DNA from: Escherichia coli
Lineage (GTDB): Bacteria > Pseudomonadota > Gammaproteobacteria > Enterobacterales > Enterobacteriaceae
Reading direction: 5' to 3' (one strand)
Assembly: GCF_044324785.1 (NCBI RefSeq)
Contig: NZ_CP172127.1
DNA: 64,000 bases
Within the stretch, counting starts at the first letter, position 1. Each line of letters starts with the position of its first letter. This document shows, piece after piece, positions 627-64,000 of the stretch. The notes below the pieces were generated by a model. The model was not told the origin of the DNA and did no database searches. It saw only the letters and a list, made by a program, of their open reading frames with translations. The position numbers and the translations under genes were made by a program.

Positions 627-654
627 GAAACATCCAGAGTTGAGACAGAATAAA

Positions 655-705
655 AAGCAAAACGCCGCCAGCCGATCCGCAAGGATCTACTGAGCGGCGT
701 TTTTG
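655..705 (-). terminator. Hairpin terminator between frr and dxr
   Basis: Long stem acgccgc (662-668) / gcggcgt (694-700) with an inner gatcc/ggatc stem; on the minus strand it is followed by ttgctttttatt. Confidence 0.5.
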
Positions 706-717
706 TCGTTCAAGAAA

Positions 718-1275
718 TCAGAACTGCATCAGTTCTGCTTCTTTGTCTGCCAGCGCCGCTTCAATTTTCTTGATTGCAGCATCAGTCAGTTTCTGTACAT
801 CGTCCTGAGAACGGCGATCGTCGTCTTCGCTGATCTCTTTATCTTTCAACAGTGCTTTCACTTTGTCGTTCGCGTCACGACGCACGTTACGTACTGCAAC
901 ACGCGCTTGTTCTGCTTCACCACGAACGATTTTGGTCAGATCTTTACGACGTTCTTCCGTCAGCGGCGGCAGCGGAACACGGATGTCGCTACCCGCAGAG
1001 TTCGGGTTCAGGCCAAGATCGGACGCCATAATCGCTTTTTCAACGGCCGGAGACATTGAACGATCAAACACGTTGATTTTCAGAGTACGGGAATCTTCTA
1101 CCGTTACGCTTGCCAGCTGACGCAGCGGCGTCGGCGTGCCGTAATATTCCACGACAATGCCATCCAGCAGGCTGGGAGAAGCACGACCCGTGCGTATTTT
1201 GCTGATTTGGGTTTTGAACGCTTCTACGCATTTGTCCATGCGTACTTCAGCATCTTTTCTGATATCGCTAATCAC
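718..1275 (-). CDS. frr: ribosome recycling factor
   Basis: 185-aa [43 protein letters not shown]...; length and synteny match Frr. Confidence 0.97.
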
Positions 1276-1566
1276 GTTACGAATCCTTGAAAACTTGTCT
1301 CAGTCAGACCAGACAGTCACACACAGTGGAAGTGTGCTAAGTATAGCCCTGATTAAACATATTACGGGTAATCGTCTGGATTATTAGGCTATTTTATTTG
1401 CCATTTTGGCCCTGGGCAGTGCTCGCCATCCTCACGCACTTGTGTACGCTCCGGTTGCTGCGCGCTGGCCGTGACCAAACTGCCTGCAACAATAACGCCT
1501 TATAACCAGACTTACGCCCCCGCGATACTTACGCGGAATCTTACCCTTATTTATCCATCACGGGAA

Positions 1567-2292
1567 TTATTCCGTGATTAAAGTCCCTTCTTTTTCACCC
1601 ATTACCACACGGCGCAGCGCACCCGGTTTGTTCATGTTGAAAACACGAATCGGTAATTTATGGTCACGAGCCAGCGTGAAGGCCGCCAGGTCCATGACTT
1701 TCAGCTCTTTTTCGAGCACTTCGCTGTAAGTCAGTTGCTCGTACATGGTTGCGGTTGGATCTTTCGCCGGATCAGCGGTAAACACGCCGTCAACTTTGGT
1801 TGCTTTCAGCACCACATCGGCTTCAATTTCGATACCACGCAGGCAAGCTGCTGAGTCGGTGGTAAAGAACGGGTTACCTGTACCGGCGGAGAGGATCACC
1901 ACACGGTTGTTGCGCAACAGGCTGATAGCTTCTGCCCAGCTGTAGCTGTCGCACACGCCATTCAATGGAATAGCGGACATCAGACGAGCGTTCACATAGG
2001 CGCGGTGCAGTGCATCACGCATTGCCAGGCCGTTCATTACGGTCGCCAGCATCCCCATGTGGTCGCCCACAACGCGGTTCATACCCGCTTTCGCCAGACC
2101 AGCGCCACGGAACAGGTTACCCCCACCAATCACCACACCAACCTGAATACCCAGTTCAACCAGTTCTTTGATTTCCTGAGCCATGCGATCCAGTATGCTT
2201 GCATCAATACCGAAGCCTTCAGTGCCCTGCAGAGCTTCGCCACTCAACTTAAGCAGAATGCGTTTATAGACGGGTTTTGCATTGGTAGCCAT
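1567..2292 (-). CDS. pyrH: UMP kinase
   Basis: 241-aa [26 protein letters not shown]...; amino-acid kinase fold; synteny frr-pyrH-tsf. Confidence 0.97.
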
Positions 2293-2399
2293 GTTTCTTT
2301 CCTGAGACTGTCAACGATTGAAATGAATTAATACTAGCGACATTGTACGTCGCTTTTCAGCGCAGCCCCACAAGGGTTAGCTGAATTTACAAGATGGGC

Positions 2400-2428
2400 A
2401 CAAAAAGAAGCCGCCCTCAGGCGGCTCC
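2400..2428 (-). terminator. Rho-independent terminator after tsf
   Basis: agccgcc-ctca-ggcggct at 2409-2426; on the minus strand it is followed by ttcttttt. Confidence 0.7.
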
Positions 2429-2438
2429 TTTTCGATAA

Positions 2439-3290
2439 TTAAGACTGCTTGGACATCGCAGCAACTTCTGCTGCAAAGTCAGTCTCAACTTTCTCGATGC
2501 CTTCACCCACTTCGAAGCGGATGAAGCCAGTCACTTCAGCGTTATGCTCTTTCAGCAGCTGACCAACAGTTTTGCTTGGTTCCATAACGAACGGCTGACC
2601 GGTCAGAGAAACTTCGCCGGTGAATTTCTTCATGCGGCCTTCAACCATTTTCTCTGCGATTTCTTTCGGCTTACCAGACTGCATCGCGATATCCAGCTGT
2701 ACCTGGTATTCTTTTTCTACCACTTCAGCGGATACGTCTTCCGGTTTGATGAATTCTGGCTTGCTTGCAGCAACGTGCATAGCGATGTGTTTAACCAGCT
2801 CTTCGTCAGCGCCTTTAGCAGCAACCAGAACGCCGATACGCGCACCGTGCTGATAAGAACCCAGAACGTCGCCTTCCAGCGCAGCAACGCGGCGAATGTT
2901 GATGTTTTCACCAATTTTCGCTACCAGCGCAACACGTTCTTCTTCGAACTGTGCTTTCAGAACTTCAACGTCAGTGATTTTGCCAGCAACAGCTGCGTCC
3001 AGAACTTTGTCTGCGAACGCCTGGAAACCAGCGTCTTTTGCAACGAAGTCAGTCTGGCAGTTAACTTCCAGAATGATGCCGTAGTTGCCGTCGATTTTGG
3101 TTTTGATCACGCCGTCAGCAGCAACGTTGCCTGCTTTTTTCGCTGCTTTAATAGCACCGGACTTACGCATGTTTTCGATTGCCAGCTCGATGTCGCCGTT
3201 AGCTTCAGTCAGTGCTTTTTTGCAATCCATCATGCCTGCGCCAGTACGCTCACGCAGCTCTTTTACCAGGGATGCGGTAATTTCAGCCAT
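2439..3290 (-). CDS. tsf: elongation factor Ts
   Basis: 283-aa [48 protein letters not shown]... Confidence 0.97.
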
Positions 3291-3340
3291 TCTAAAATCC
3301 TCGGAGATGTGATCTGCCCGGCATTAAACCGCACAGATAT

Positions 3341-3374
3341 AAAAGTGAAAAAGGGGGCCATATGCAGGCCCCCT
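3341..3374 (-). terminator. Intergenic rpsB-tsf hairpin (attenuator-type partial terminator)
   Basis: gggggcc-atatgca-ggccccc at 3353-3373; on the minus strand it is followed by tttttcactttt; sits about 60 nt upstream of the tsf start. Confidence 0.6.
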
Positions 3375-3547
3375 AACCAAACGTGTACTACCTGGTCTAT
3401 AAGGGCTCTCCCCCTTCATATTTCGCGCCGCAGATGCGTTATCTTCGCTCGCTCATCCCGGTCACTTACTGATGTAAGCTCCCGGGAATTCTCGAGCTTG
3501 CCGCCTTTCTGCAACTCGAACTATTTTGGGGGAGTTATCAAGCCTTA

Positions 3548-4495
<948 letters not shown>

Positions 4496-4640
4496 TCAGA
4501 CGTTGAATTTTCTATTATAGAAAACCTTCAGTGGCACGTTTGGCGAAATTCAGAATGATTCTCAATTTGCCCGGGTGTGATACCATTGACGGCACTTACA
4601 TATATATTGTCGGTATCACCGACGCTGATGGACAGAATTA

Positions 4641-5435
4641 ATGGCTATCTCAATCAAGACCCCAGAAGATATCGAAAAAATGCGCGTCGCTGGCCGACTG
4701 GCTGCCGAAGTGCTGGAGATGATCGAACCGTATGTTAAACCGGGCGTCAGCACCGGCGAGCTGGATCGCATCTGTAATGATTACATTGTTAATGAACAAC
4801 ACGCGGTTTCTGCCTGCCTCGGCTATCACGGTTATCCGAAATCCGTCTGCATCTCTATTAATGAAGTGGTGTGCCACGGTATCCCGGACGACGCCAAGCT
4901 GCTGAAAGATGGCGATATCGTTAACATTGATGTCACCGTAATCAAAGATGGTTTCCACGGCGATACCTCGAAAATGTTTATCGTCGGTAAGCCGACCATC
5001 ATGGGCGAACGTCTGTGCCGCATCACGCAAGAAAGCCTGTACCTGGCGCTGCGCATGGTCAAACCTGGCATTAATCTGCGCGAAATCGGTGCGGCGATTC
5101 AGAAATTTGTTGAAGCAGAAGGTTTCTCCGTCGTTCGTGAATATTGTGGACACGGTATTGGTCGTGGCTTCCATGAAGAACCGCAGGTACTGCACTATGA
5201 CTCCCCTGAAACCAACGTCGTGCTGAAACCGGGGATGACCTTCACCATCGAGCCAATGGTCAACGCGGGTAAAAAAGAGATCCGCACCATGAAAGATGGC
5301 TGGACGGTAAAAACCAAAGATCGCAGCTTGTCTGCACAATATGAGCATACTATTGTGGTGACTGATAACGGCTGCGAAATTCTGACGCTACGCAAGGATG
5401 ACACCATCCCGGCGATAATCTCGCACGACGAATAA
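4641..5435 (+). CDS. map: methionine aminopeptidase
   Basis: 264-aa ORF MAISIKTPEDIEKMRVAGRLAAEVLEMIEPYVKPGV... Confidence 0.97.
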   Translation: MAISIKTPEDIEKMRVAGRLAAEVLEMIEPYVKPGVSTGELDRICNDYIVNEQHAVSACLGYHGYPKSVCISINEVVCHGIPDDAKLLKDGDIVNIDVTVIKDGFHGDTSKMFIVGKPTIMGERLCRITQESLYLALRMVKPGINLREIGAAIQKFVEAEGFSVVREYCGHGIGRGFHEEPQVLHYDSPETNVVLKPGMTFTIEPMVNAGKKEIRTMKDGWTVKTKDRSLSAQYEHTIVVTDNGCEILTLRKDDTIPAIISHDE

Positions 5436-5439
5436 GATG

Positions 5440-5465
5440 AAGCCGGCGAATGCCGGCTTTTTTAA
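5440..5465 (+). terminator. Rho-independent terminator after map
   Basis: Hairpin agccggc-gaa-tgccggct at 5441-5458 followed by a T run (cttttttaa). Confidence 0.75.
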
Positions 5466-5478
5466 TGCGATAATTTAA

Positions 5479-8169
<2,691 letters not shown>

Positions 8170-8199
8170 TGTGTTTACTGATATGAAAAGAGTTTAACA

Positions 8200-9024
8200 A
8201 TGCAGCAGTTACAGAACATTATTGAAACCGCTTTTGAACGCCGTGCCGAGATCACGCCAGCCAATGCAGACACCGTTACCCGCGAAGCGGTAAATCAGGT
8301 GATCGCCCTGCTGGATTCCGGCGCACTGCGTGTGGCGGAAAAAATTGACGGTCAGTGGGTGACGCATCAGTGGTTGAAAAAGGCGGTGCTGCTCTCTTTC
8401 CGTATTAATGATAATCAGGTGATCGAAGGGGCAGAAAGCCGCTACTTCGATAAAGTGCCGATGAAATTCGCCAACTACGATGAAGCGCGTTTCCAGAAAG
8501 AAGGCTTCCGCGTTGTACCACCAGCGGCGGTACGTCAGGGTGCGTTCATTGCCCGTAACACCGTGCTGATGCCGTCTTACGTCAACATCGGCGCATATGT
8601 TGATGAAGGCACCATGGTTGATACCTGGGCGACCGTCGGTTCCTGTGCGCAGATTGGTAAAAACGTCCATCTTTCCGGTGGCGTAGGTATCGGCGGCGTG
8701 CTGGAGCCATTACAGGCGAACCCGACCATTATTGAAGATAACTGCTTCATTGGCGCGCGTTCTGAAGTGGTTGAAGGCGTAATTGTCGAAGAAGGTTCCG
8801 TCATTTCCATGGGCGTATACATCGGTCAGAGCACCCGTATTTACGACCGTGAAACCGGCGAAATCCACTACGGTCGCGTTCCGGCGGGGTCTGTGGTTGT
8901 TTCAGGTAATCTGCCGTCGAAAGATGGCAAATACAGTCTTTACTGTGCGGTTATCGTTAAGAAAGTTGACGCGAAAACTCGCGGCAAAGTCGGCATTAAC
9001 GAACTGCTGCGTACCATCGACTAA
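8200..9024 (+). CDS. dapD: 2,3,4,5-tetrahydropyridine-2,6-dicarboxylate N-succinyltransferase
   Basis: 274-aa [51 protein letters not shown]... Confidence 0.97.
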
Positions 9025-9034
9025 AAATCAGTAC

Positions 9035-9064
9035 ACGGGCAGCATGACGCTGCCCGATTTTTTG
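9035..9064 (+). terminator. Rho-independent terminator after dapD
   Basis: Hairpin gggcagc-atgac-gctgccc at 9037-9055 followed by gattttttg. Confidence 0.7.
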
Positions 9065-9076
9065 CAGGGATGGATG

Positions 9077-9889
9077 ATGATCACACGCAGGCGTTTTTTA
9101 CAGGCAGCCGCCGCGACGTTAGCTGCCGGATCAAGCCTCAGCTATATGCATTATTGGGAACCTGGCTGGCTTGAAATAACCCATCACAGCATCAGCTTTT
9201 TTAAAGACAAAGCCCTACCTTTTAAAATTCTTTTTCTGGCAGATCTCCATTACTCCCGCTTTGTTCCGCTTACCTTGTTTTCAGACGCCATTAATCATGG
9301 AGTGGCACAAAAGCCCGATTTGATTCTGCTAGGCGGCGATTACGTATTGTTTGATATGCCGCTGAATTTTTCAGCCTTCAGTGACGTACTCTCTCCCCTT
9401 GCCAAATGTGCGCCGACATTTGCCTGTTACGGCAACCACGATCGCCCCGTGAGAACGGAGAAAAATCACTTAATTGGCGAGGCGTTAAAGACGGCGGGGA
9501 TCACGGTGTTATTTAACGAAGCCACGCTTATCTCCACTCAGAAGCAGCAATTTGAACTGGTTGGCGCAGGTGATTTATGGGCCGGGCAATGTAATCCACC
9601 CGGCGTAAATGACGCGAGTCTGCCACGGCTGATGCTGGCGCATAATCCCGACAGTAAAGAACGCCTGCGCGAAGAAAAATGGGATCTAATGCTTTGCGGT
9701 CATACTCACGGCGGGCAGCTCCACGTGCCGTTAATAGGCGAACCTTTTGCGCCTGTTGCCGATAAACGCTACGTCGCCGGGTTAAATGCCTTTGGCGAGC
9801 GGCAAATTTACACCACCCGCGGCGTGGGAAATTTGCATGGCTTGCGTCTGAACTGCCGCCCGGAAGTGACGATGCTGGAACTGATTTAA
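9077..9889 (+). CDS. yaeI: metallophosphoesterase (phosphodiesterase YaeI) with twin-arginine signal
   Basis: ORF track shows a 368-aa ORF starting at 8783 that overlaps dapD; the plausible start is ATG at 9077 (MITRRRFLQAAAATLAAGSS, a Tat-type RRxFLQ motif), giving 270 aa as in K-12; has GNHD and GHTHGG phosphoesterase motifs. Confidence 0.9.
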   Translation: MITRRRFLQAAAATLAAGSSLSYMHYWEPGWLEITHHSISFFKDKALPFKILFLADLHYSRFVPLTLFSDAINHGVAQKPDLILLGGDYVLFDMPLNFSAFSDVLSPLAKCAPTFACYGNHDRPVRTEKNHLIGEALKTAGITVLFNEATLISTQKQQFELVGAGDLWAGQCNPPGVNDASLPRLMLAHNPDSKERLREEKWDLMLCGHTHGGQLHVPLIGEPFAPVADKRYVAGLNAFGERQIYTTRGVGNLHGLRLNCRPEVTMLELI

Positions 9890-9903
9890 CTGGAGATTCA
9901 ATA

Positions 9904-10614
9904 ATGGATTATTTTCTCGGCGGCTATATGTTGCTACATTGCCTGCCCGTTGAGGGGCTTCATCCGCAACTTAAAGGTAAACCACTGCTAACGTGCAGTA
10001 CCTGTTTTAATGAAAGTCTGCTTTGTGCCTGGTCTTACGCGTGGTTAGGTTCCGATAAAGACTCTCCTTATGATGGCAATATGTCACTTTACGAACATCT
10101 GGAAGCCACTTTTTTGCTTACAGACGAAGACAGGGAACAGATCCGCATCCGGGCAAATGATTGGTTCAATGAGGATAAAGTTGGCTGGGAAAGTATATTC
10201 ATGGATAAATCGACCGCTATTGAATATAAACAAAGTTTCTTTCCCCATATCGAGAATTGCTACCTTCTTGCAATCTATATCAGAGAACCGAATGTACAAG
10301 AGTTCTCCCTTTATCCATCCCATGATGGTATTGCTGCAAGGCTTCTTCGCAGGCAGCCTGAACGAAATGAAATGGATGAAAAGTTATTAGGTTACGATAT
10401 TCTGGGTCTGGAAATCGGCGGGCAGTTCCATACATCTCACTGCCATCCATTGTATAACGAACTCCACCAGCGCTTCGGTCTCACCCTCAATCAACACGGA
10501 CTTTATAACGAAATCCCGGACTGGCAACCGGTCGTGGACTATATGAACGACGACGCCACGGGATGCGAACCCGTCCCCTGGGGTATCGCCACAATAAAGC
10601 AGGTAATTTTTTGA
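9904..10614 (+). CDS. hypothetical 236-aa acidic protein of unknown function, with an N-terminal Cys cluster; not part of the K-12 gene order as I recall it
   Basis: Intact 236-aa ORF MDYFLGGYMLLHCLPVEGLHPQLKGKPLLTCSTCFNESLLCAWSYAW...; ATG 15 nt after yaeI stop with a GGAG 8 nt upstream; occupies an 844-bp yaeI-yaeH spacer that I recall as about 160 bp in K-12; appears more AT-rich than its neighbours. Confidence 0.6.
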   Translation: MDYFLGGYMLLHCLPVEGLHPQLKGKPLLTCSTCFNESLLCAWSYAWLGSDKDSPYDGNMSLYEHLEATFLLTDEDREQIRIRANDWFNEDKVGWESIFMDKSTAIEYKQSFFPHIENCYLLAIYIREPNVQEFSLYPSHDGIAARLLRRQPERNEMDEKLLGYDILGLEIGGQFHTSHCHPLYNELHQRFGLTLNQHGLYNEIPDWQPVVDYMNDDATGCEPVPWGIATIKQVIF

Positions 10615-10733
10615 TTTTTACGCCATGATAGAAGTCTGGAAGAAAAAGGCTTTCTGCGATCACAGTCGAGCCGAGCGGGCCAGGCCAAATGCTAAAATAA
10701 GCACAATTTACTGACTCATTTTGAGGTAACGCT

Positions 10734-11120
10734 ATGTACGACAATCTGAAAAGTCTGGGTATTACCAATCCTGAAGAAATTGATCGTTACAGCCTCCGGC
10801 AGGAAGCCAACAACGATATTCTGAAAATCTATTTCCAGAAAGACAAAGGCGAGTTTTTTGCCAAGAGCGTGAAATTTAAATATCCGCGTCAGCGTAAAAC
10901 GGTCGTCGCCGATGGTGTGGGTCAGGGTTATAAAGAAGTGCAGGAGATTAGCCCTAATCTTCGCTATATCATTGATGAGTTAGATCAAATCTGCCAGCGT
11001 GACCGCAGCGAAGTTGATCTTAAGCGTAAGATCCTCGACGACTTACGTCACCTGGAGTCAGTAGTAACCAATAAGATCAGCGAGATTGAAGCCGATCTGG
11101 AAAAACTGACGCGTAAATAA
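10734..11120 (+). CDS. yaeH: UPF0325 family protein YaeH
   Basis: 128-aa [45 protein letters not shown]...; GAGG upstream of the ATG. Confidence 0.93.
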
Positions 11121-11131
11121 TGCCATTCTGT

Positions 11132-11166
11132 GGGCCGGGTAAAGTCTCACCCGGCTGTAATTTTGT
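11132..11166 (+). terminator. Hairpin terminator between convergent yaeH and cdaR
   Basis: Stem gccgggt (11134-11140) / acccggc (11149-11155), then ctgtaattttgt. Confidence 0.5.
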
Positions 11167-11173
11167 CATCGAC

Positions 11174-12331
11174 CTACCGCTCTTCATCCAGTTGTAACGC
11201 CACATACAGCAGCAATCTGTCATCAAAATTGCCCAAATCAAGCCCGGTCAGTTCCGATATACGATTAAGCCGATACTCCAGAGTATTACGATGAATAAAC
11301 AACGCCTTTGACGTTGCCAGCGGTTGCACATTGTGGCGAAACCACGCCGCCAGCGTTCGCCGCAGCAAGCCGTTATTGTCCATCGCTTTCAGCCGCGCCA
11401 GCGGTCGCGCCAGTTCGTTGGCCTGCCAGTCGCCACGCAAACTGTCGAGTAACACAGGCAACATCAGATCCTGATAAAAATAGCAGCGACTTTCAGGCAT
11501 TCGCTGTTTACCCACCACCATCGTCGTTTTCGCCGTACGATAGGATCGGGCAATACTGCCCGGTCCGGTAAAATAGTTGCCCAGCGAAACGCGAAAACGC
11601 AGCTGGCCGTACTCTTTCATGCGGGTAATGAGTTGTTCAACTCGCTTACGATGATCTTCTGCATCCCAGCGCCCAAAAGAGTTCAACGCCGGTTTCAACA
11701 CCACCATTTCGGTCAGCGAGACAATCGCCACCAGATTATTACGCTCAGGCGTAGTCAGCGCGTTTTGCAGTTGCTGTAACTCCGCCATTGCGCTGTCCAC
11801 GCCAAGCTGACCGCTGTCGACCTCAACAATAGCCACCACTCGCGGTTGATTGAGATCGATCCCCAGCCGTTGCGCCCATTCAGTAAGTGCGGGGGTATTC
11901 TCCTCAGCCTGAATCAGGTTCATCACCAGTTCTTCCCGCAAACGGCTATCCTGCGCCAACAGGTGCATCAACCGCGACTGTTCCAGCATCATTTCAGCCG
12001 TCATGCAGACCAGTTCGCCATATTTACGCAGGTTCTCTGGTTCACCAGTCAGGCCAATTACGCCGACAATTTCACCTTCCAGCCGTAACGGTAGATTAAT
12101 CCCTTGCCGCACACCGTGCAGATGACGTGCCACCGCGTCATCGATATCCACTACTCGTCCCTGTGAAAGTACCAGCAATGCACCTTCGTGCAATTCACCA
12201 ATACGCTCACGATCGCCGCTGCCGATAATTCGCCCGCGGGCATCCATTACGTTGATATTGGTATCGATGATGCGCATGGTACGTGCCACGATATCCTGCG
12301 CCATTTTGGTATCAAGATGCCAGCCAGCCAT
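11174..12331 (-). CDS. cdaR: carbohydrate diacid regulator (SdaR/CdaR family transcriptional activator)
   Basis: ORF track 391 aa; start placed at the internal Met (MAGWHLDTKMAQDIVARTMRIID...) giving 385 aa; C-terminal helix-turn-helix. Confidence 0.93.
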   Translation of the reverse strand: MAGWHLDTKMAQDIVARTMRIIDTNINVMDARGRIIGSGDRERIGELHEGALLVLSQGRVVDIDDAVARHLHGVRQGINLPLRLEGEIVGVIGLTGEPENLRKYGELVCMTAEMMLEQSRLMHLLAQDSRLREELVMNLIQAEENTPALTEWAQRLGIDLNQPRVVAIVEVDSGQLGVDSAMAELQQLQNALTTPERNNLVAIVSLTEMVVLKPALNSFGRWDAEDHRKRVEQLITRMKEYGQLRFRVSLGNYFTGPGSIARSYRTAKTTMVVGKQRMPESRCYFYQDLMLPVLLDSLRGDWQANELARPLARLKAMDNNGLLRRTLAAWFRHNVQPLATSKALFIHRNTLEYRLNRISELTGLDLGNFDDRLLLYVALQLDEER

Positions 12332-12449
12332 AAGTCCTCCGTTATGCACGGCTTAGCATAAGGAAGTACGTAACGTACGGCATTGTGCAAATGCCCAAAG
12401 GATGATGAAGATGTATGGAGTTGTGGCGAAGTTCACAGATTGTAAGGAG

Positions 12450-12478
12450 AACCCCTTCCCGTATTCAGGAAGGGGTTG
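12450..12478 (-). terminator. Hairpin terminator downstream of degP
   Basis: Stem ccccttcc (12453-12460) / ggaagggg (12468-12475); on the minus strand it is followed by a weak U-rich tract. Confidence 0.45.
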
Positions 12479-12485
12479 AGGGAGA

Positions 12486-13910
12486 TTACTGCATTAACAG
12501 GTAGATGGTGCTGTCGCCGCGCTGAATGTTCAGTGCCAGCACAGACGGTTTGCTGTCGAGAACTTTACGCAGTTCAGCGATATTTTTCACTGCCTGCTGG
12601 TTCGCGCCAATAATCACATCACCTTTTTTCAGGCCGATCTGCGCAGCCGGAGTGCCCGTTTTCACGTTGTTCACTACCACGCCCTGATCTTTGCCTTTGT
12701 TGCTCATCTCAGCGCCTTCAATGCCGTTGAAGATGGAGCTGGAATCAACCTGATTCTGGCTGCTCTGCTGCAGTTCCAGGTTCACGTTAACCTGCTTACC
12801 GTCGCGCAGTAAGCCCAGGGTCAGTTTGCTACCCACCGGCATAGTACCCACCTGAGCACGCAGCGCGGCAAAGCTGCTGATTGGCTTACCGTTCAGTGAG
12901 GTGATCACATCACCCGCTTTAATGCCCGCTTTTGCAGCGGAGGAGTTAGGCAGAACCTGGCTTACGAAAGCACCGCGCTGGGCGTCAACTTTCATCGCTT
13001 TCGCCAGTTCGGAGTTCAGCTCAGTCCCCATAATACCCAGCTCACCGCGTTTCACCTGGCCGTATTCCACCATCTGAGAGGTCAGGTTTTTCACCATGTT
13101 ACTCGGGATAGCAAAACCGATACCGATGTTGCCGCCGTCCGGTGCGAGGATCGCGGTGTTGATACCGATCAGTTCGCCGTTCAGGTTAACCAACGCACCA
13201 CCGGAGTTACCACGGTTGATCGCTGCATCGGTCTGGATGAAGTTTTCGTAGTTTTCAGCATTCAGGCCGCTACGCCCCAGCGCAGAGACAATCCCGGAAG
13301 TTACCGTCTCACCCAGACCAAACGGGTTACCAATTGCTACGGTGTAATCACCCACGCGCAGTGCATCAGAATCCGCCATCTTAATTGCGGTCAGATTTTT
13401 CGGGTTCTGGATCTGGATCAGCGCGATATCAGAGCGCGGATCTTTGCCAACCATCTTCGCGTCGAACTTACGACCATCGCTCAGCTGGACTTTAATCACC
13501 GTCGCGTTATCAACAACGTGGTTGTTGGTGACGACATAGCCTTTATCGGCATCAATGATGACGCCGGAACCCAGCGCCATGAATTTCTGTTGCTGGCCGC
13601 CGCCATTACCGCCCTGGCCCCCCTGGCAGAACGGAGAGCTCTGGAACGGAGAACCTTCCTGGCAGAACGGAGAATCATCACCGAAGAACTGCTGGAAATT
13701 ACGCGGCATACGCGGCGTATTAACGGTTGTGCTACCTTCTACGTTAATGCTGACCACTGAAGGCATCACCTTTTCGAGCATCGGTGCAAGGCTTGGCATC
13801 TGCTGGGCTGTCGTTGCTGAAGAAGTCTCAGCCGCCGTTGCAGAGAGCGGAGATAACGCCAAACCTAAACTCAGAGCCAGTGCACTCAGTGCTAATGTGG
13901 TTTTTTTCAT
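12486..13910 (-). CDS. degP: periplasmic serine endoprotease / chaperone DegP (HtrA)
   Basis: 474-aa ORF MKKTTLALSALALSLGLALSPLSATAAE...; signal peptide, trypsin-like GNSGGAL motif, two PDZ-like C-terminal regions. Confidence 0.97.
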   Translation of the reverse strand: MKKTTLALSALALSLGLALSPLSATAAETSSATTAQQMPSLAPMLEKVMPSVVSINVEGSTTVNTPRMPRNFQQFFGDDSPFCQEGSPFQSSPFCQGGQGGNGGGQQQKFMALGSGVIIDADKGYVVTNNHVVDNATVIKVQLSDGRKFDAKMVGKDPRSDIALIQIQNPKNLTAIKMADSDALRVGDYTVAIGNPFGLGETVTSGIVSALGRSGLNAENYENFIQTDAAINRGNSGGALVNLNGELIGINTAILAPDGGNIGIGFAIPSNMVKNLTSQMVEYGQVKRGELGIMGTELNSELAKAMKVDAQRGAFVSQVLPNSSAAKAGIKAGDVITSLNGKPISSFAALRAQVGTMPVGSKLTLGLLRDGKQVNVNLELQQSSQNQVDSSSIFNGIEGAEMSNKGKDQGVVVNNVKTGTPAAQIGLKKGDVIIGANQQAVKNIAELRKVLDSKPSVLALNIQRGDSTIYLLMQ

Positions 13911-13949
13911 GTATTTCAGTCTCGATTAACAGATAACGCAAAATTGCTG

Positions 13950-13990
13950 TGTTCTTCAGATTCGTTTTATAGCGCGAAGTTCCGAACTAA
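13950..13990 (-). promoter_or_regulatory. sigma-E type promoter of degP
   Basis: Minus-strand read gives GGAACTT-16 nt-TCTGA (plus-strand aagttcc at 13977-13983 and tcaga at 13956-13960), which fits the sigma-E consensus, about 40 nt upstream of the degP ATG. Confidence 0.65.
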
Positions 13991-14039
13991 AGTTTCTGCA
14001 AAAGGTAAAAATTTATTGTTCGTCTTTACAAAAGCCTGG

Positions 14040-15557
14040 TTATTGTTCTACGGCCATCAGACGTCGGTATTCATCCCAGGCATAGAGGTCGGTCATACCG
14101 CTGATATAATCCTGCAGCAGGCGGCAACGGTAATAATATTCCCATAGCGGAAACTCAGGAGAATCTGACGGTAATTTACTGACAGCCTCGACATAGGCCA
14201 GCCGATGGCGCGTCGAGAGTTTGTGGAATAAGCGCGATTCAATAGGGAAACGTTTCACCCGTTCTTTTTCTACCAGTTCAGTAAAGTCTGATAACGACAG
14301 GCTTAATAAAGGACGATAAATCTCTAATAATCCGCTAATGACCCGATAGCCCTGCAATTCAAGCTGCTCGACATCTGGATGGCTAAATACATGTTTTACA
14401 GCGACATTTTTATATAGCTTTAGAAGATCGCTGCATTCGCTGGCATCTTCCAATAATGCATGATTAAACGTTCCGGCGAAAATCGCAGGCAGATTATCAA
14501 TAAATCGTTGTGCCGCGTAGGGTACCAGTTTATTTAGGGTGTTTACCCGTAAATACATAAAAAACTGATCTTCCGTACTGCGGCTTAAAGTATTTGAGCG
14601 TGATTTTTCCCAGGCATTTTCAACCACCAGCGAAAAGAGCGAACCTTTCTCATGCTTGCCCCACGCTTCGTGCAAATGATGATAAAGCTGCTCAACGCTA
14701 AATATTCTTTTCTCTACCGCATCTTCAAGATCTGCCACACAATAGGAGATGTCGTCGGCAGCTTCCATAATCCACGTTAATGGAAAACGACTGTAAAGCG
14801 CCAAATTAAGTTCTTTACGCAACCGGGCAATATAGGCTTCTTCAGAAAGATAATAACCCGGCTTTTTCATTAAATAGTGATGTGTCTCAGGCGTTTCGCC
14901 ACGCCACCACGCCGGACGGGTATATTTTAAAATAACGCCAACCTGTGCCCAGGTGAGATTCATCCGCATCAATGTATGCACCAGACGAATGCCTTGTGCA
15001 TTCCCCTCAAAATGACATAAGTCCTGACGAATCTTGCGCCGCAGCTCGTTAAGCGGTTCTTCCCCGTCCCGTAAACGTAGTGCCGCCACGCTGCAGCGAT
15101 CGTCAGTCAGAGGCTGGCTTTCGGCATCTTCCGGGTGCAAACGTTGGCGAAACCAGTCATTTATCGCTGCTTCGCCAAAATGACCAAACGGCGGATTGCC
15201 GATATCGTGCATCAGGCATGACATCTCAACAATGCTTTCAAAAGGTCCGGTCAGTTCATCCAGGCCGTATGCTTCCAGCAATTTAAGCTCTTTCAGACGG
15301 CTTAAAATTTCTTTGGCGATGTAGCGCCCCACCTGCTGGACTTCCATTGAGTGGGTAAGACGCGTGCGCACGGCAGCATTGCGCTCCAGTGGAAAAACCT
15401 GGGTCTTTTGTTGCAGACGACGAATTGCCGGAGAGTTGATGATACGCCCGCGATCGCTCTCGAAGATCCGCAGAATCTCATGTTCGGTTTTAACGCCCTG
15501 CGGTGAACGGTAACGACGATGCCAGTTTATTTTTTTTCGGAAATCAATCTGTGCCAT
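14040..15557 (-). CDS. dgt: dGTP triphosphohydrolase
   Basis: 505-aa [60 protein letters not shown]...; HD-domain motif. Confidence 0.97.
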
Positions 15558-15640
15558 GTCCTCTCCCGCGTGAGAAATACGCTTCCCCGTAAGCGCATGG
15601 TAAACTATGCCTTCAAATCGGGCTTATCGCGAGTAAATCT

Positions 15641-16339
15641 ATGAAAATCGGCATCATTGGTGCAATGGAAGAAGAAGTTACGCTGCTGCGTGACAAAATC
15701 GAAAACCGTCAAACTATCAGTCTGGGCGGTTGCGAAATCTATACCGGCCAACTGAATGGAACCGAGGTTGCGCTTCTGAAATCGGGCATCGGTAAAGTCG
15801 CTGCGGCGCTGGGTGCCACTCTGCTGTTGGAACACTGCAAGCCAGATGTGATTATTAACACCGGTTCTGCCGGTGGCCTGGCACCAACGCTGAAAGTGGG
15901 CGATATCGTTGTCTCGGACGAAGCACGTTATCACGACGCGGATGTCACGGCATTTGGTTATGAATACGGTCAGTTACCAGGCTGCCCGGCTGGCTTCAAA
16001 GCTGACGATAAACTGATCGCTGCCGCTGAGGCCTGCATTGCCGAACTGAATCTTAACGCTGTACGTGGCCTGATTGTCAGCGGCGACGCTTTCATCAACG
16101 GTTCTGTTGGTCTGGCGAAAATCCGCCACAACTTCCCACAGGCCATTGCTGTAGAGATGGAAGCGACGGCAATCGCCCATGTCTGCCACAATTTCAACGT
16201 CCCGTTTGTTGTCGTACGCGCCATCTCCGACGTGGCCGATCAACAGTCTCATCTTAGCTTCGATGAGTTCCTGGCTGTTGCCGCTAAACAGTCCAGCCTG
16301 ATGGTTGAGTCACTGGTGCAGAAACTGGCACATGGCTAA
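15641..16339 (+). CDS. mtnN: 5'-methylthioadenosine/S-adenosylhomocysteine nucleosidase
   Basis: 232-aa [56 protein letters not shown]... Confidence 0.97.
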
Positions 16340-27352: not shown

Positions 27353-29878
27353 TTAATTACTACCAAACATATCCTTGATCCAACCAGCTACACCGTCGCT
27401 GTCTTTCTGCTCTTGCTGAGCAGGTTGCTGTTGCTGCGGCTGAGAAGACTGATCAAACGGATTGCCTGACGGTTGCTGCTGCATCTCACTCTGCTGGCAC
27501 AGCGATTGCGGATCGCTGGTCCAGACCGGCAAGACACGCATACCACCGCTGCAAACAAAGTTGCCGTCGTAGTCCACGCCCATATCTGCAATATCTTCTG
27601 GCGGAACAAGATTTAGCGGCGTTGGCGTCTGGTTAGCCAGATAACGCTGATAAATCGACATTGCCCCGCTGGCTCCATACAGTTTGGTCGGCTGGTTGTT
27701 ATCACGGCCGACCCAGGTGATGGTCACCGTGCTGCCGTCAATGCCCGCAAACCAGGTATCTACGTTGTTGTTGGTAGTCCCGGTTTTTCCCGCCAGATGC
27801 AGATTTGGATATTTCGCCCCAAGCTGACGCCCCGTACCACGTTGTACCACCTGCTGCATGGTCCATAGTGTCAGATACGCCGCCTGCGCCGGAACAGCGC
27901 GTTCTGCCTGCGGGAAGCTCTGATACAGCACCTTGCCATCTTCCGCGATTACCGAACGCAGCGCAGAAAGCGGAGCACGGTTACCGCCGCTGGCGATGGT
28001 CTGGAATGCCTGCGCCACTTCGATTGGCGTTAAGTTCAACGCCCCCAGCAGCATCGCCGGAACCGGATGCAGCTGATCTTTCGGTACGCCCAGTTTAATC
28101 CAGGTCTCCGTAACCGCAGGCAGCCCCAGCGCCATCCCCAGATTTACCGTCGGCACGTTCATCGAACGGGTCAACGCATCCACCAGCATCACTCTGCCGC
28201 TTTCGCTATAACGACGGTCATCGTTCTGCGGTGACCAGACCTGGCCATTTGGCTGACGCAGCGCGATTGGCGCATCCGCAATCCACGTATTCAGACGATA
28301 GATTTTCGGCTGGCTTAAAGCCGTCAGATAAGTCGCTGGTTTTGCAAGGGAACCAATCGAACGACGCGCCTGCATCGCACGGTTGTAGCCCGCAAACTGC
28401 GGCTCAGAACCACCGACCATCGCACGAACTTCACCGCTAAAGCGGTCAACAACCACAATCGCGGTTTCAAGATCGCTCAACTTACGCTGTTTCTTCAGTG
28501 CCGGAATGCCTTCCACGGCGGCTTTTTCTGCCGCGTCCTGGGCCACCGAGTCAAAGGTAGTGAAGATCTTCACGCCGGAGAGATCTTTTACCTTATCGCC
28601 TAATTTCGCCTGCAGCTCCTGACGCACCAGTTGCATAAAGGCTGGCTGAGGAGAGATCACCCCACCGCGCGGCTGAACACCCAGCGGACGTGCACTCAAC
28701 ATATCATAGAGTTCTTGATCAATAATCTGTTGCTGTTGCAGCAAACGTAGCACCAGGTTACGTCGCTCCAGCGCCAGTTTCGGGTTACGCCACGGGTTGT
28801 AGATGGACGCCCCTTTAACCATACCCACCAACAGCGCCTGCTGATCGAGGCTCAATTCTTCTACCGGACGACCAAAGTAATACAAGCTCGCCAGCGGGAA
28901 GCCGCGGATTTCGTTGTCGCCGCTCTGACCGAGATACACCTCGTTCATATACAGCTCAAGAATACGGTCTTTGCTGTAACGCGCGTCCATGATCAGCGCC
29001 ATGTAAGCTTCGTTCGCTTTACGCCAGTAAGAGCGCTCGCTGGAGAGGAACAGGTTTTTCACCAGCTGTTGCGTCAGCGTACTCGCACCCTGCACCGTGC
29101 GTCCGGCGGTCAGGTTTGCCAGCACCGCACGCCCAATTGAGTAGAGGCTGATCCCATCATGTTCGTAGAAATGACGGTCTTCTGTCGCCAGCAAAGTATC
29201 CACCAGCAAATCCGGGAAACCACTGCGCGGCACAAACAGACGCTGCTCACCGTTTGGCGAAGAGATCATGGTGATCAGACGCGGATCAAGACGGAAGAAA
29301 CCGAACTGACGGTTGTTCTCCATATTGACGATCGTCGCCAGATGATCGCCATCAAAGGTCAGACGTGCACGCACCTGCCCTTCTTTACTGTCCGGGAAAT
29401 CAAACGGACGGCGGATCATCTCAATGCTGTTGGCCTGCACGGTAAATTCGCCGGGACGGGTCATTTTCGACACCTGACGATACTGGGTCGCCTCCAGCAG
29501 CTTCACCATCTCGTTCTTGCTGATGGTCATGTCTGGCTCAAGGTTGACCATCCGGCCATAAACTGCCGCGGGCAGTTGCCAGACCTTACCATCAATACGG
29601 CTGCGAATTTTTTGATCGAGATAAACGCCGTAAATGGCGATCAGCACGGCAAAAACGATAGCCAGTTTTAGCAGCAGCCATAGCCAGCCGCGTTTGCCAC
29701 GAGGCTTACGCCCTTTGCCTTTGCCCTTACCTTTGCGCGGCATCGGTTCTTCATCCTCATAGTCATCATAATCGTCGTAATCATCGTCATCTTCGTAACG
29801 ACGACGGCTTACCTTTTGTTTGACCGGACGCGTCGGTTTCCCTTTGCGTCCAATTGGCTCGCGGTCATTCCCGGCCAT
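27353..29878 (-). CDS. mrcB: penicillin-binding protein 1B (bifunctional glycosyltransferase/transpeptidase)
   Basis: ORF track 846 aa; start at [20 protein letters not shown]... gives 844 aa; acidic [15 protein letters not shown] and basic [17 protein letters not shown]-terminal tracts. Confidence 0.96.
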
Positions 29879-42824: not shown

Positions 42825-42877
42825 TTATGCTAAGCATAATGCTTCTACAAATATTATTTTTTCAAAGGAGTGATAAG

Positions 42878-44128
42878 ATGAAGTCAGCGTTCCGATACTT
42901 TATTTTTTTATGGATTATCACAGCCAGCATTAATAATGTAAATGCTGGAAGTCTTACTTTTATGGTCGGTAACGATGCTGGCATAGGAAACACGCACGGC
43001 CCAACAGGCGATAAACTAATATCATTTGCCTATCCGGTTGGTGGAGTAAACAATATTGTATTTTATGATCCAACATCAGACACACCGACCGATGCAAAAA
43101 TAAAATTATATTGGAGTGAACTGGACACATCAAGTAGCGGTGGGACTGTATATTGTACTTCAAAAGATAATTCCAGCGGTGTGCCAATTACTGTCCGGCA
43201 TCAGATGGTTTACTCAGGAAAAATGGCAGATGGGCACAAATTATATGAAACCAATGTTACCGGTCTATATTATACGTTAATGCTCAATAAATTCTGGTCG
43301 TATGAACTTCTCTCAAGCTCTCCAGATATGTACGTTGGAGACGACGGCTGGCACACTGTACAATTTTATATTACGGGTAATTATATGCGAGGTCAATGTA
43401 ATACTAAAAATATACAAGCCGTCGGGGGCCTTGCTCACGATGCTACAGTGAAATTCTATACCGACAGAACTTTTAACCCTGCTCCAAATACTAACGTGCA
43501 ATTAAAACACACTGGTGATTATTTGTATTCATTCGAAAATGAAGGACCAGGGAATCCAAATGTAAAGTATTCTAAGAAACTATTCGTAGATTTTAAATTA
43601 ACAGACATCAAAATCCAACTGCCAACATGCTTTACGTCTATCCTTTTGGGTGAGAGCGTAACGCGATCAACCGTAAATCTCGGGGAATATACTGTTGGAC
43701 AGATCACCTCAGATTCTGCAACACCTGTTAATTTTCAGATTTCGCTACAAAATTGTGTTCGAATAAGTAGTATTAAAACAAAACTAAAATCTAATGTAGT
43801 AGGAGTGAATAATCCTCTGTTGCTTGGTAATACTTTGACAGGAACCGATGATGCAAAAGGTGCCGGAGTACTTATTGAAGGGTTACCCAATAGCAAAAAT
43901 TCACAAAATTTCACGCTTAAGCCAAATGATGAGACGTCAAGCTATAACGATGCTGAAGATGATCCTGGAGAAAACAATGGAATTTATAACCCAGATTATC
44001 CTAATGCCAACGGTCGTACTACAACCCAGGACCTGAAATTTCAGGCAACATTAAAACGCGATGGTAATGCAACTGTGAAACCCGGCGGATTTAAGGCTAC
44101 CAGTACATTCCAGGTCACCTACGAGTAA
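42878..44128 (+). CDS. yadC: fimbrial tip adhesin-like subunit (YadC-like)
   Basis: ORF track 433 aa from 42827; start at ATG 42878 (MKSAFRYFIFLWIITASINNVNA) preceded by AAGGAG; 416 aa with pilin-like C-terminus STFQVTYE. Confidence 0.8.
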   Translation: MKSAFRYFIFLWIITASINNVNAGSLTFMVGNDAGIGNTHGPTGDKLISFAYPVGGVNNIVFYDPTSDTPTDAKIKLYWSELDTSSSGGTVYCTSKDNSSGVPITVRHQMVYSGKMADGHKLYETNVTGLYYTLMLNKFWSYELLSSSPDMYVGDDGWHTVQFYITGNYMRGQCNTKNIQAVGGLAHDATVKFYTDRTFNPAPNTNVQLKHTGDYLYSFENEGPGNPNVKYSKKLFVDFKLTDIKIQLPTCFTSILLGESVTRSTVNLGEYTVGQITSDSATPVNFQISLQNCVRISSIKTKLKSNVVGVNNPLLLGNTLTGTDDAKGAGVLIEGLPNSKNSQNFTLKPNDETSSYNDAEDDPGENNGIYNPDYPNANGRTTTQDLKFQATLKRDGNATVKPGGFKATSTFQVTYE

Positions 44129-45047: not shown

Positions 45048-45899
45048 GTGTTAATTATCGAAACCCTGCCGCTGCTGCGTCAGCAAATTCGCCGCCTGCG
45101 TATGGAAGGTAAGCGCGTGGCGCTGGTGCCAACCATGGGTAATCTGCACGATGGCCATATGAAGCTGGTTGACGAAGCCAAAGCCCGCGCCGATGTGGTC
45201 GTCGTCAGTATTTTCGTTAACCCAATGCAGTTTGACCGCCCGGAAGATCTGGCACGTTATCCACGGACCTTGCAGGAAGACTGCGAGAAGCTAAACAAAC
45301 GTAAAGTGGATTTGATTTTCGCGCCTTCGGTAAAAGAGATCTATCCGAACGGTACTGAAACCCACACCTATGTTGATGTTCCCGGTCTTTCTACCATGCT
45401 GGAAGGTGCCAGCCGTCCGGGACATTTTCGCGGCGTTTCGACTATCGTCAGCAAGCTGTTCAATCTGGTCCAGCCGGACATCGCCTGCTTCGGTGAAAAA
45501 GATTTTCAGCAACTGGCGCTAATCCGCAAAATGGTTGCTGATATGGGCTTTGATATTGAGATTGTCGGTGTGCCAATTATGCGCGCCAAAGATGGTCTGG
45601 CGCTGAGTTCCCGTAACGGTTATCTGACGGCGGAACAACGCAAAATTGCGCCTGGTCTGTACAAGGTTTTAAGTTCGATTGCCGACAAATTGCAGGCTGG
45701 CGAACGGGATCTTGATGAAATTATTACTATTGCCGGGCAAGAACTGAATGAAAAAGGCTTCCGCGCCGATGATATTCAGATTCGTGATGCCGACACATTG
45801 CTGGAAGTCTCTGAAAACAGCAAACGTGCCGTGATTCTGGTAGCCGCCTGGCTTGGCGATGCCCGCCTGATCGACAACAAAATGGTCGAACTGGCGTAG
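45048..45899 (+). CDS. panC: pantoate--beta-alanine ligase
   Basis: 283-aa ORF (GTG start, AAGGAG upstream) [41 protein letters not shown]... Confidence 0.97.
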
Positions 45900-45980
45900 T
45901 ACTTAACTGGCGCTACGGCTGATGGCGCCAGTTATTCATTGCCACGTCATCTGTAAGCAATTATTCATATCGTAGACAAC

Positions 45981-46250
45981 TTAGTTAGAGTTAATTAGCT
46001 TATCAATCTCTGCAAGAGATAAAGCTGTCACCTCTGCAACGTCTTCCCGAGACATCCCTTTATTCAGAAAACGTTGGGCGAATTCCTGTCTTACTTCCTG
46101 TCTTACTTCCTGTCTTACTTCCTGTCTTACTTCCTGTCTTACTTCCTGTCTTACTTCTTGATACGCTTCTTGATACGCCTTCTGAAATCCCTTCTCTTCA
46201 AACCACTGCGCTAACGTCTGCCTGGTTTCTCTCCGTGTCTTTATTTCCAT
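45981..46250 (-). CDS. standalone small protein homologous to the C-terminal tail of RpnC (RpnS / YpaA-like), with an (EVRQ)6 repeat
   Basis: 89-aa ORF MEIKTRRETRQTLAQWFEEKGFQKAYQEAYQEVRQEVRQEVRQEVRQEVRQEVRQEFAQRFLNKGMSREDVAEVTALSLAEIDKLINSN; AAGGGA 4 nt upstream of the ATG; nucleotide segment about 85% identical to the rpnC 3' end. Confidence 0.7.
   Translation of the reverse strand: MEIKTRRETRQTLAQWFEEKGFQKAYQEAYQEVRQEVRQEVRQEVRQEVRQEVRQEFAQRFLNKGMSREDVAEVTALSLAEIDKLINSN
46085..46180 (-). repeat. In-frame 12-bp tandem repeat array inside the small Rpn-tail gene
   Basis: 6 perfect copies of cctgtcttactt (46085-46156) plus 2 copies of cttgatacgcyt (46157-46180); encodes (EVRQ)6 and (EAYQ)2 on the minus strand. 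Confidence 0.95.
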
Positions 46251-46318
46251 ATGTTCCCTTAATTATCTGGTCAGTTAACAATAACAATTATCTGGCTATA
46301 ACTGATAATACAGACAAC

Positions 46319-46558
46319 TTAGTTAATCAGTTTATCAATCTCAGCAAGAGGTAAATTTGCCATCTCTGCAACGTCTTCCCGAGACATTCCTTTACTCAGA
46401 AGACGCTGGGCGAATTCCTGACTTACTTCCTGTGTTACTTCCTGTATTACCTCTTGTCTTACCTCTTGTCTTACCTCCTGTCTTCCTTCCTGTCTTCCTT
46501 CCTGTCTTCCTTCCTGTCTTCCCCTCTCTTCAAACCACTGCGCCAGCGTCATCATAGA
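46319..46558 (-). CDS. putative intragenic small ORF in frame with the rpnC C-terminus (RpnS-type candidate antitoxin)
   Basis: In-frame ATG-ATG at 46553-46558 (MMTLAQWFEERGRQEG...KLIN, 79 aa) preceded on the minus strand by acGGGAGGGGAGtct, a strong Shine-Dalgarno 3 nt upstream, inside the rpnC coding sequence. Confidence 0.45.
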   Translation of the reverse strand, partial: SMMTLAQWFEERGRQEGRQEGRQEGRQEVRQEVRQEVIQEVTQEVSQEFAQRLLSKGMSREDVAEMANLPLAEIDKLIN

Positions 46559-62826: not shown

Positions 62827-64000
62827 ATGAAAATGACTTTGCCGTTTAAACCCCATGTGCTGGCGCTAATTTGCAGTGCCGGGCTTTGTGCCGCCTCTGC
62901 CGGGCTATATATAAAAAGCCGCACAGTGGAAGCGCCTGTGGAAGCGCAATCGACACAACTGACTGTGTCTGACGCTGCCGCGGTTACGCTTCCTGCAACG
63001 GTTTCCGCGCCTCCCGTAACACCCGCCGTCGTCAAATCCGCATTCAGCACTGCGCAAATAGATCAATGGGTTGCACCTGTCGCGCTGTACCCCGACTCTC
63101 TGCTTTCACAAGTGTTAATGGCATCAACCTATCCGACAAACGTTGCGCAAGCAGTGCAATGGTCGCACGATAATCCACTTAAACAAGGCGATGCTGCTAT
63201 TCAGGCGGTATCTGACCAGCCGTGGGATGCAAGCGTCAAATCACTGGTGGCCTTTCCACAGTTGATGGCGTTGATGGGCGAAAACCCGCAATGGGTGCAA
63301 AACCTGGGCGATGCTTTTCTGGCGCAGCCGCAGGACGTGATGGACTCGGTACAGCGATTGCGGCAACTGGCGCAACAAACCGGCTCGCTGAAGTCATCAA
63401 CCGAACAGAAAGTTATTACCACAACGAAGAAAGCTATACCGGTAAAACAGACAGTCACGGCTCCCGTCATACCATCCAATACCGTTTCAACTGCCAACCC
63501 TGTCATTACAGAGCCTGCAACAACCGTCATTTCCATTGAGCCCGCCAATCCTGATGTGGTCTATATTCCCAACTACAACCCAACCGTGGTTTACGGGAAC
63601 TGGGCCAATACTGCGTATCCGCCGGTTTATCTGCCACCACCAGCCGGAGAACCGTTTGTTGACAGCTTTGTGCGCGGATTCGGCTATAGCATGGGCGTTG
63701 CTACCACGTACGCACTATTTAGCAGCATCGACTGGGACGATGACGATCATGACCATCATCATCATGACGATGATGATTATCATCACCACGATGGCGGTCA
63801 TCGTGACGGTAATGGCTGGCAACACAACGGCGACAACATCAATATCGACGTCAACAATTTCAACCGTATCACCGGTGAGCATCTTACTGATAAGAATATG
63901 GCATGGCGGCACAATCCAAACTACCGTAATGGTGTGCCCTATCATGATCAGGATATGGCAAAGCGGTTTCACCAAACCGATGTTAACGGCGGCATGAGCG
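62827..64000 (+). CDS. yacH: DUF3300 family protein YacH, N-terminal part (3' end outside the window)
   Basis: Own translation from ATG 62827: MKMTLPFKPHVLALICSAGLCAASAGLYIKSRTVEAPVEAQS...SIDWDDDDHDHHHHDDDDYHHHDGGHRDGNGWQHNG...; open to the window end, so absent from the complete-ORF track; signal peptide; divergent from acnB as in K-12. Confidence 0.8.
   Translation, partial: MKMTLPFKPHVLALICSAGLCAASAGLYIKSRTVEAPVEAQSTQLTVSDAAAVTLPATVSAPPVTPAVVKSAFSTAQIDQWVAPVALYPDSLLSQVLMASTYPTNVAQAVQWSHDNPLKQGDAAIQAVSDQPWDASVKSLVAFPQLMALMGENPQWVQNLGDAFLAQPQDVMDSVQRLRQLAQQTGSLKSSTEQKVITTTKKAIPVKQTVTAPVIPSNTVSTANPVITEPATTVISIEPANPDVVYIPNYNPTVVYGNWANTAYPPVYLPPPAGEPFVDSFVRGFGYSMGVATTYALFSSIDWDDDDHDHHHHDDDDYHHHDGGHRDGNGWQHNGDNINIDVNNFNRITGEHLTDKNMAWRHNPNYRNGVPYHDQDMAKRFHQTDVNGGMS

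Follow-up and report, generated by a model that had tools for sequence, protein, structure and literature searches.

Organisation of the rpnC locus

The window analysed here is a 64-kb stretch of Escherichia coli DNA in which rpnC (yadD) is followed by a second, smaller gene related to its 3′ end. The gene order is panD - rpnC - rpnCSs - panC - panB, with the convergent neighbour panC (45048-45899, plus strand) anchoring the locus, and the same synteny is found in K-12 and in all related loci. rpnC itself (46319-47275, minus strand) encodes a protein of 318 amino acids, the RpnC(L) toxin, in which an N-terminal YhgA-like PD-(D/E)XK nuclease domain is followed by a repeat-bearing tail, an assignment drawn from the open reading frame, Pfam, TIGR01784 and identity to K-12. 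Specifically, residues 7-207 match PF04754 (Transposase_31; E=1.6e-86), the product scores 283 bits against TIGR01784 (cutoff 52), and it shares 90% identity with K-12 RpnC, the gaps all falling in the repeat array and the N-terminal 240 residues being nearly identical. The initial annotation had noted that rpnC is 18 residues longer than in K-12, and this is correct (318 versus 300 amino acids), the net figure being made up of five more repeat units (+20 residues) minus two C-terminal residues that are extra in K-12.

The Rpn proteins have been characterised as a toxic nuclease, RpnL, and an antitoxin, RpnS, made from an internal start (Zhong, Jiang, Hickman, Klier, Teodoro, Dyda, Laub and Storz, PNAS 2023; PMC10400941), and translation from the internal start of K-12 rpnC was demonstrated in the same study (Zhong et al., 2023). 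The window carries the corresponding reading frame, RpnC(S) (46319-46555, minus strand), of 78 amino acids (MMTLAQWFEE...), which shares the frame of rpnC and has its start at ATGATG (46550-46555). A Shine-Dalgarno-like sequence, GGGAGGGGA (46560-46568, minus strand), lies 4 nt upstream of this start. The putative in-frame internal ribosome-binding site and start that precede the tail, GGGAGGGGA-N4-ATGATG (46550-46568), are found in every locus, and the start context GGGAGGGNAGTCTATGATG is kept in all the loci examined.

Downstream of rpnC, after a spacer of 68 bp (46251-46318, minus strand) that is kept in all two-gene loci and includes AAGGGA (46255-46260) 4 nt upstream of the next ATG, lies rpnCSs (45981-46250, minus strand). 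It encodes a free-standing paralogue of the RpnC tail of 89 amino acids (MEIKTRRETRQTLAQWFEEKG...KLINSN), which matches positions 193-273 of TIGR01784 (E=3.4e-8) and is named ‘RpnC/YadD family protein’ in RefSeq. The name rpnCSs was given to this downstream gene by Zhong et al. (2023; their Figure 2I), who describe its loss through deletion or through fusion to the N-terminal domain of rpn, and the gene of the window agrees with that definition, as a separate small open reading frame on the same strand that begins 68 bp past the stop codon of rpnC, is a homologue of the RpnC tail and is limited to some strains. A Pfam-A scan of the 89-residue protein gave no significant family, and its relatives carry PF27070 (HTH_Rpn_C) in precomputed annotations; the miss may reflect either an older library or a long array that breaks the PF27070 match. 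A scan for promoters and terminators found no sigma-70-like minus-strand promoter for rpnCSs, so that the gene would be co-transcribed with rpnC or rpnC(S).

The relationship between the two genes is visible at the nucleotide level as an ungapped direct repeat of 230 nt, with an upstream copy in rpnC (46321-46550, minus strand) and a downstream copy in rpnCSs (45989-46218, minus strand), recovered by a direct-repeat search and, for the upstream copy, also by alignment. The copies are 82% identical and hold their arrays in register, and their spacing of 332 bp agrees with the 330 bp by which the arrays had initially been said to be separated.

Two further features of the surroundings were observed. 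Between the convergent stop codons of panC and the small gene there is a perfect 9-bp inverted repeat (aactggcgc ... gcgccagtt, with an 11-nt loop; 45905-45933), kept in all related loci, which may be a shared terminator of the two genes. Upstream of panB, the window has an open reading frame of 433 amino acids with a signal-peptide-like start (42827-44128, plus strand), a position occupied in related loci by a Pfam Fimbrial (PF00419) gene.

Structure and sequence of the repeat arrays

Array 1, in rpnCSs (46085-46180, minus strand), consists of six perfect cctgtcttactt units (46085-46156) followed by cttgatacgctt and cttgatacgcct (46157-46180), that is, two cttgatacgcyt units. It encodes six VRQE and two AYQE units and, with the flanking FQKA, makes up nine four-residue units. 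Array 2, in rpnC (46417-46524, minus strand), has nine degenerate units of the same family, namely cctgacttactt, cctgtgttactt, cctgtattacct, two copies of cttgtcttacct, three of cctgtcttcctt and cctgtcttcccc, which encode three RQEG, three RQEV, and one each of IQEV, TQEV and SQEF, and which are common to RpnC(L) and RpnC(S). These coordinates and unit compositions, read directly from the sequence, confirm the initial annotation to the base. In both arrays, each four-residue unit combines one hydrophobic residue with three that are charged or glycine.

Tandem Repeats Finder reports the same arrays at 46083-46157 (period 12, 6.2 copies, 100% match, score 150), 46154-46183 (period 12, 2.4 copies, score 53) and 46415-46520 (period 12, 8.8 copies, 90% match, score 135), and the period-12 arrays of the rpnC locus are the top-scoring tandem repeats across the window. 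By our own arithmetic, the chance expectation of five further perfect copies of a 12-mer in 64 kb is about 5e-32. Elsewhere in the window there are two other short tandem repeats of in-frame length, one of 2.7 copies of an 18-bp unit (29751-29798) and one of 1.9 copies of a 24-bp unit with the consensus ATGACGATCATGACCATCATCATC (63740-63785).

The arrays had at first been placed in a linker before a conserved C-terminal segment. An AlphaFold2 model of the 89-residue protein, built on 15 tail sequences (mean pLDDT 77), instead predicts helices at residues 6-63, 68-75 and 79-87, and the entire array 1 falls within the first of them, which argues against a flexible linker; in this model the repeats are predicted to lengthen a helix, and the linker reading is wrong. 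The predicted arrangement of the paralogous small protein, a long first helix and two short helices, matches the helix-turn-helix-like fold expected of the tail. It also agrees with Zhong et al. (2023), who assign the repeats to the RpnS dimerisation helix and whose crystal structure of RpnA(S) is a dimer of three-helix bundles. Searches with phmmer found no solved structure matching full-length RpnC, and with the K-12 tail returned only a designed helix-turn-helix repeat protein, a weak match (E=1e-5), the RpnA(S) crystal structure not being retrieved.

Variation in repeat number between strains

It was reported by Zhong et al. (2023) that the four-residue repeats of the first helix differ in number among strains, and we examined this at the rpnC locus in 18 loci from complete E. 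coli genomes and about 40 from exact-protein look-ups, counting units between WFEE(K/R)G and A(Q/L)R(L/F)L. Across about 50 related loci, unit counts for the rpnC array are 2, 3, 4, 6, 7, 8, 9 or 10 within E. coli and 8 or 12 within E. marmotae, and the rpnCSs array has 3 to 9 units. Array length is in frame in all of them, always a multiple of 6 or 12 nt, and between strains the copy number changes in single 12-bp steps, in keeping with the initial expectation that it would do so without shifting the frame. The nine-unit rpnCSs array of the window stands at the long extreme, since 71 cluster representatives of the small protein in a large protein collection have one to six units; the exact 89-residue protein is recorded in 95 blocks of that collection.

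The steps can be followed on otherwise constant backgrounds. The same 65-residue rpnCSs allele is found beside leading IEKG runs of 2, 3, 4 or 5 in rpnC (L045, L044, L043 and L049, respectively), and the same 71-residue allele accompanies RpnC proteins of 306, 310 or 314 amino acids. Runs of identical neighbouring units vary the most, and short degenerate arrays the least. Such stepwise, in-frame changes are the pattern expected from slippage or unequal exchange, and we infer that one or the other, acting among adjacent identical units, lies behind the alleles. The longest rpnC array that was observed is in E. marmotae (L057, 540-1532), with 12 units in an RpnC of 330 amino acids, next to the same 69-residue small gene that accompanies an 8-unit rpnC in L056 and L058. 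A phase-variable on/off contingency locus was considered and rejected, as the unit is 12 bp, all arrays are in frame and the variation is one of length only.

Repeat numbers in the two genes do not go together. The window is the only one of 40 two-tail loci, or 19 distinct allele pairs, in which the two arrays are equal (132 and 132 nt, 9 and 9 units), and its nearest relatives, L019 and L020, have the identical 89-residue allele of nine units next to an rpnC with one RQEG unit fewer, that is, eight. One rpnCSs allele was found beside rpnC arrays of 6 to 10 units. Retrieval of loci by exact small-protein sequence is a biased sampling, and no meaning attaches to the number of distinct small-gene alleles, but the mismatch in repeat number between rpnC and rpnCSs within one genome is a robust feature of the loci compared.

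Recombination between the two tails

Because the arrays are direct repeats, the initial annotation had proposed that recombination between them would delete about 330 bp and fuse rpnC to the downstream tail, giving back a K-12-like single gene. We followed exchange between the tails by means of the diagnostic differences that the copies show on both sides of the arrays and inside them; an end with six extra bases (…INSN) further marks the downstream copy.

Single-gene loci in which the rpnC body is joined to a downstream-type tail do exist in complete genomes. In L013, the body of rpnC and the internal start are followed by a downstream-type array and a downstream-type end, the array being identical to a downstream-type array and the stretch after it identical at 140 of 140 positions to the small gene of L007; the L013 protein is listed in 4,460 blocks. 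On these diagnostic sites L013 is a fusion with its junction at or before the array. In L052 the junction lies after the array, an rpnC-type array being followed by a downstream-type end (…KIITSN), and in L011 and L012 the rpnC-type tail is kept and the switch to the panC-proximal flank comes just past the stop codon. Patches are also found in the reciprocal direction, with rpnC-type ends on the rpnCSs genes of L004, L014 and L055 and rpnC-type array units in the rpnCSs of L008. As judged from these junctions before the array, after it and past the stop codon, together with the reciprocal patches, both tails are therefore mosaics with several junction positions.

What did not stand was the substrate. 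Among complete genomes there is no junction that falls unambiguously inside an array, and the products of array-internal crossover that came up, P0050 among them, were all proteins encoded on short metagenome contigs. A deletion could draw on homology along the whole 230-nt duplicated tail, beyond the arrays alone. Chimeric tails limited to short metagenome contigs (P0002, P0050, P0051 and L059-L061) could be assembly artefacts across the 332-bp repeat.

The origin proposed for K-12-like genes also has to be revised. K-12 rpnC is of the rpnC type through the array and the second helix and is of the downstream type only in its last ~20 nt, so that, if it is a fusion at all, it is not an array-to-array one, and that derivation was rejected. 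K-12 could alternatively represent an ancestral single-tail form, but the two-gene layout of E. marmotae favours loss in K-12. A second candidate was set aside as well: L059-L061, metagenome contigs from ENA that come from different samples, join the N-terminus of the small gene to a K-12/L016-type tail and flank, and were considered as a two-tail ancestor of K-12-like genes. The L059-type arrangement has zero counterparts in 5,426 complete E. coli genomes, two of the contigs are shorter than 1 kb and one of those has ~1.3x coverage; the arrangement may belong to a rare lineage or result from chimeric assembly over the tail repeat.

Distribution and decay of rpnCSs

In a set of 5,426 complete E. 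coli genomes, coverage of at least 80% was reached by 1,276 for a query that spans both tails and by 1,526 for the small-gene region. By sequence coverage, the second gene is thus present in about 24-28% of complete genomes, most of the others having a single gene of K-12 length; about half of 60 records sampled down the ranking have a span of 450-451 bp, the same as in K-12. Repeat number and presence of the second gene, the two quantities singled out for tabulation at the start, therefore both differ across E. coli, the former as array length and the latter as presence in 1,276 to 1,526 of the 5,426 genomes. Neither an invariant copy number nor a lack of recombination products is what these loci present, as copy number varies and fusions exist, and the initial view of a built-in source of variation in length and sequence is borne out in substance by the stepwise arrays and the tail mosaics.

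E. marmotae shares the layout panD - rpnC - small gene - panC. The two-gene arrangement is therefore old, and the single-gene lineages of E. coli have more likely lost the second gene. Where two tails are present, rpnCSs is intact in 40 of 40 sampled loci, a sample biased by the retrieval of loci by exact small-protein sequence.

Individual loci are in various states of decay. An IS66-family element replaces rpnC in L033 (1-1397), the small gene being intact, and in L054 (534-1231) an IS1A lies between rpnC and panC at the expected site of the small gene. rpnC is interrupted by a stop codon within its array in L037 (I*EV) and is broken into open reading frames of 178 and 123 amino acids in L042. 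In L010 (O145:H28) RefSeq calls the small gene a pseudogene; as read here its open reading frame is intact.

Discussion

We consider it very probable that the panC-panD rpnC locus is a two-tail locus whose arrays vary by slippage and whose 230-nt tails recombine. According to this proposal, rpnC would be translated both as the YhgA-like nuclease toxin RpnC(L) and, for its last 78 codons alone, from the internal start as the antitoxin RpnC(S), and a diverged duplicate of the tail follows as the separate 89-residue gene rpnCSs. The arrays would sit in the long first α-helix of a domain of three helices, the last two forming a helix-turn-helix-like pair, and every added unit would thus make the first helix longer by four residues. 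Replication slippage or unequal exchange among identical neighbouring units would lead to frequent stepwise changes in copy number, independently in the two genes, and in rpnC, where the same DNA encodes toxin and antitoxin, both proteins would change together. Recombination between the 230-nt copies would give rise to gene-conversion patches, to fusions of rpnC with the downstream tail and to loss of the second gene. The present analysis itself shows the anatomy of the locus, its variation and mosaicism and the predicted helix, and the slippage mechanism and the co-transcription of rpnCSs are what we infer; the separate translation of RpnS, neutralisation, its loss at a difference of one repeat and phage defence by plasmid-borne Rpn are taken from Zhong et al. 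(2023).

A simpler possibility is that the locus is a neutral minisatellite, in which unstable 12-bp repeats encode a helix that tolerates any length, with no role in defence or specificity and with rpnCSs decaying. This would fit the concentration of variation among identical adjacent units and its scarcity in short degenerate arrays, the K-12 span of 450-451 bp shared by about half of the 60 sampled records, and the frequent decay of the locus (the IS66-family element in L033, the stop in L037, the split gene in L042 and the pseudogene annotation in L010). However, an RpnC(S) with one extra repeat no longer neutralises RpnC(L), unless the repeat is present in the toxin as well (Zhong et al., 2023), and therefore length matters functionally; all arrays are in frame, rpnCSs is intact in all 40 loci of the biased two-tail sample, and the layout is kept in E. 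marmotae. We thus regard neutrality as unlikely. Somewhat less likely again, in our estimation, is that diversification is directed by RpnC, a speculation raised by Zhong et al. (2023), with the nuclease cutting at or near the arrays and so provoking expansions, duplication of the tail and tail-to-tail recombination. The recombination products at the rpnC locus are unusually diverse, and Rpn proteins promote RecA-independent recombination according to literature that is cited by Zhong et al. (2023); yet the sequences do not require such an activity, as slippage and homologous exchange between the two 230-nt copies (82% identity, 332-bp spacing) suffice, and no cleavage sequence motif was identified in this analysis.

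That the differences in copy number and the fusions could be errors of sequencing or assembly in repetitive DNA is a concern for several chimeric proteins, which come from single low-coverage contigs under 1.5 kb, and for the L059-type locus, which is missing from complete genomes. As an account of the whole it is scarcely credible, since no array exceeds 168 bp, a length below or close to that of one read, identical alleles turn up in independent assemblies by the hundred or thousand (95 to 16,094 blocks), and the differences are present among finished RefSeq chromosomes.

The independent variation of repeat number in rpnC and rpnCSs raises the question of what rpnCSs does. If a mismatch of one repeat has the effect that was published for RpnC(S), then, with arrays that are uncoupled, rpnCSs would be expected to fail on the resident toxin in most strains, which suggests that it is usually not the cognate inhibitor of that toxin. 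It could act as a recombination partner or inhibit other variants, or it may be a relic. As repeat numbers do not track each other and patches of each tail are present in the other, we suggest, tentatively and with more doubt than confidence, that rpnCSs may be no spare cognate antitoxin but an uncoupled partner, whose main use would be as a recombination substrate through which RpnC tails are re-assorted, or in the inhibition of RpnC variants other than the resident one.

Both the observation and its interpretation are already published, the initial annotation being a correct independent rediscovery, and the locus is no new kind of system. The window and the Rpn/RpnS system of Zhong et al. 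(2023) have in common the gene (rpnC/yadD), the internal start, the position of the repeats in the first helix, the 12-bp variation and the downstream rpnCSs, and there is no difference in kind between them; particular to the window are the long nine-unit rpnCSs array and, among 19 pairs, arrays of equal length. Those authors also flagged the expansion mechanism of ‘these dodecamer repeats’ for study, and a literature search turned up no later work on RpnC or RpnS. What is added here is modest, namely a census (approximately a quarter of complete E. coli genomes), a map of the recombination junctions and the uncoupled repeat numbers of rpnC and rpnCSs. PADLOC v2.0 has no model matching RpnC and gave no meaningful match; plasmid-borne Rpn has been found to defend against phage (Zhong et al., 2023). 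The rpnC locus would thus be a compact case of rapid diversification in a candidate for phage defence, in which toxin and antitoxin, encoded by the same DNA, can shift their pairing specificity together by in-frame slippage of repeats.

By analogy only, the silent pilE/pilS cassettes of Neisseria likewise place a non-identical partial copy beside an expressed gene with which it exchanges patches; the rpnC locus differs in having one donor copy, not many, which is itself an intact gene, and no dedicated recombination signal is known for it. The repeats of the HsdS proteins of EcoR124I and EcoR124II (TAEL), in the literature as it is cited by Zhong et al. (2023), are also an in-frame 12-bp unit that encodes four residues of a helical spacer, and a change of one copy alters interaction specificity and leaves the protein intact; the HsdS helix spaces two DNA-recognition domains, whereas the RpnC helix sets the pairing of toxin and antitoxin, and the proteins are not homologous. 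The rpnE-ypaA (rpnESs) pair of E. coli K-12 likewise has a free-standing copy of an Rpn tail directly downstream of its parent rpn gene, and its expression has been shown by tagging (Zhong et al., 2023). rpnESs and rpnCSs have independent origins, as the phylogeny in the same study groups each downstream copy with its own parent.
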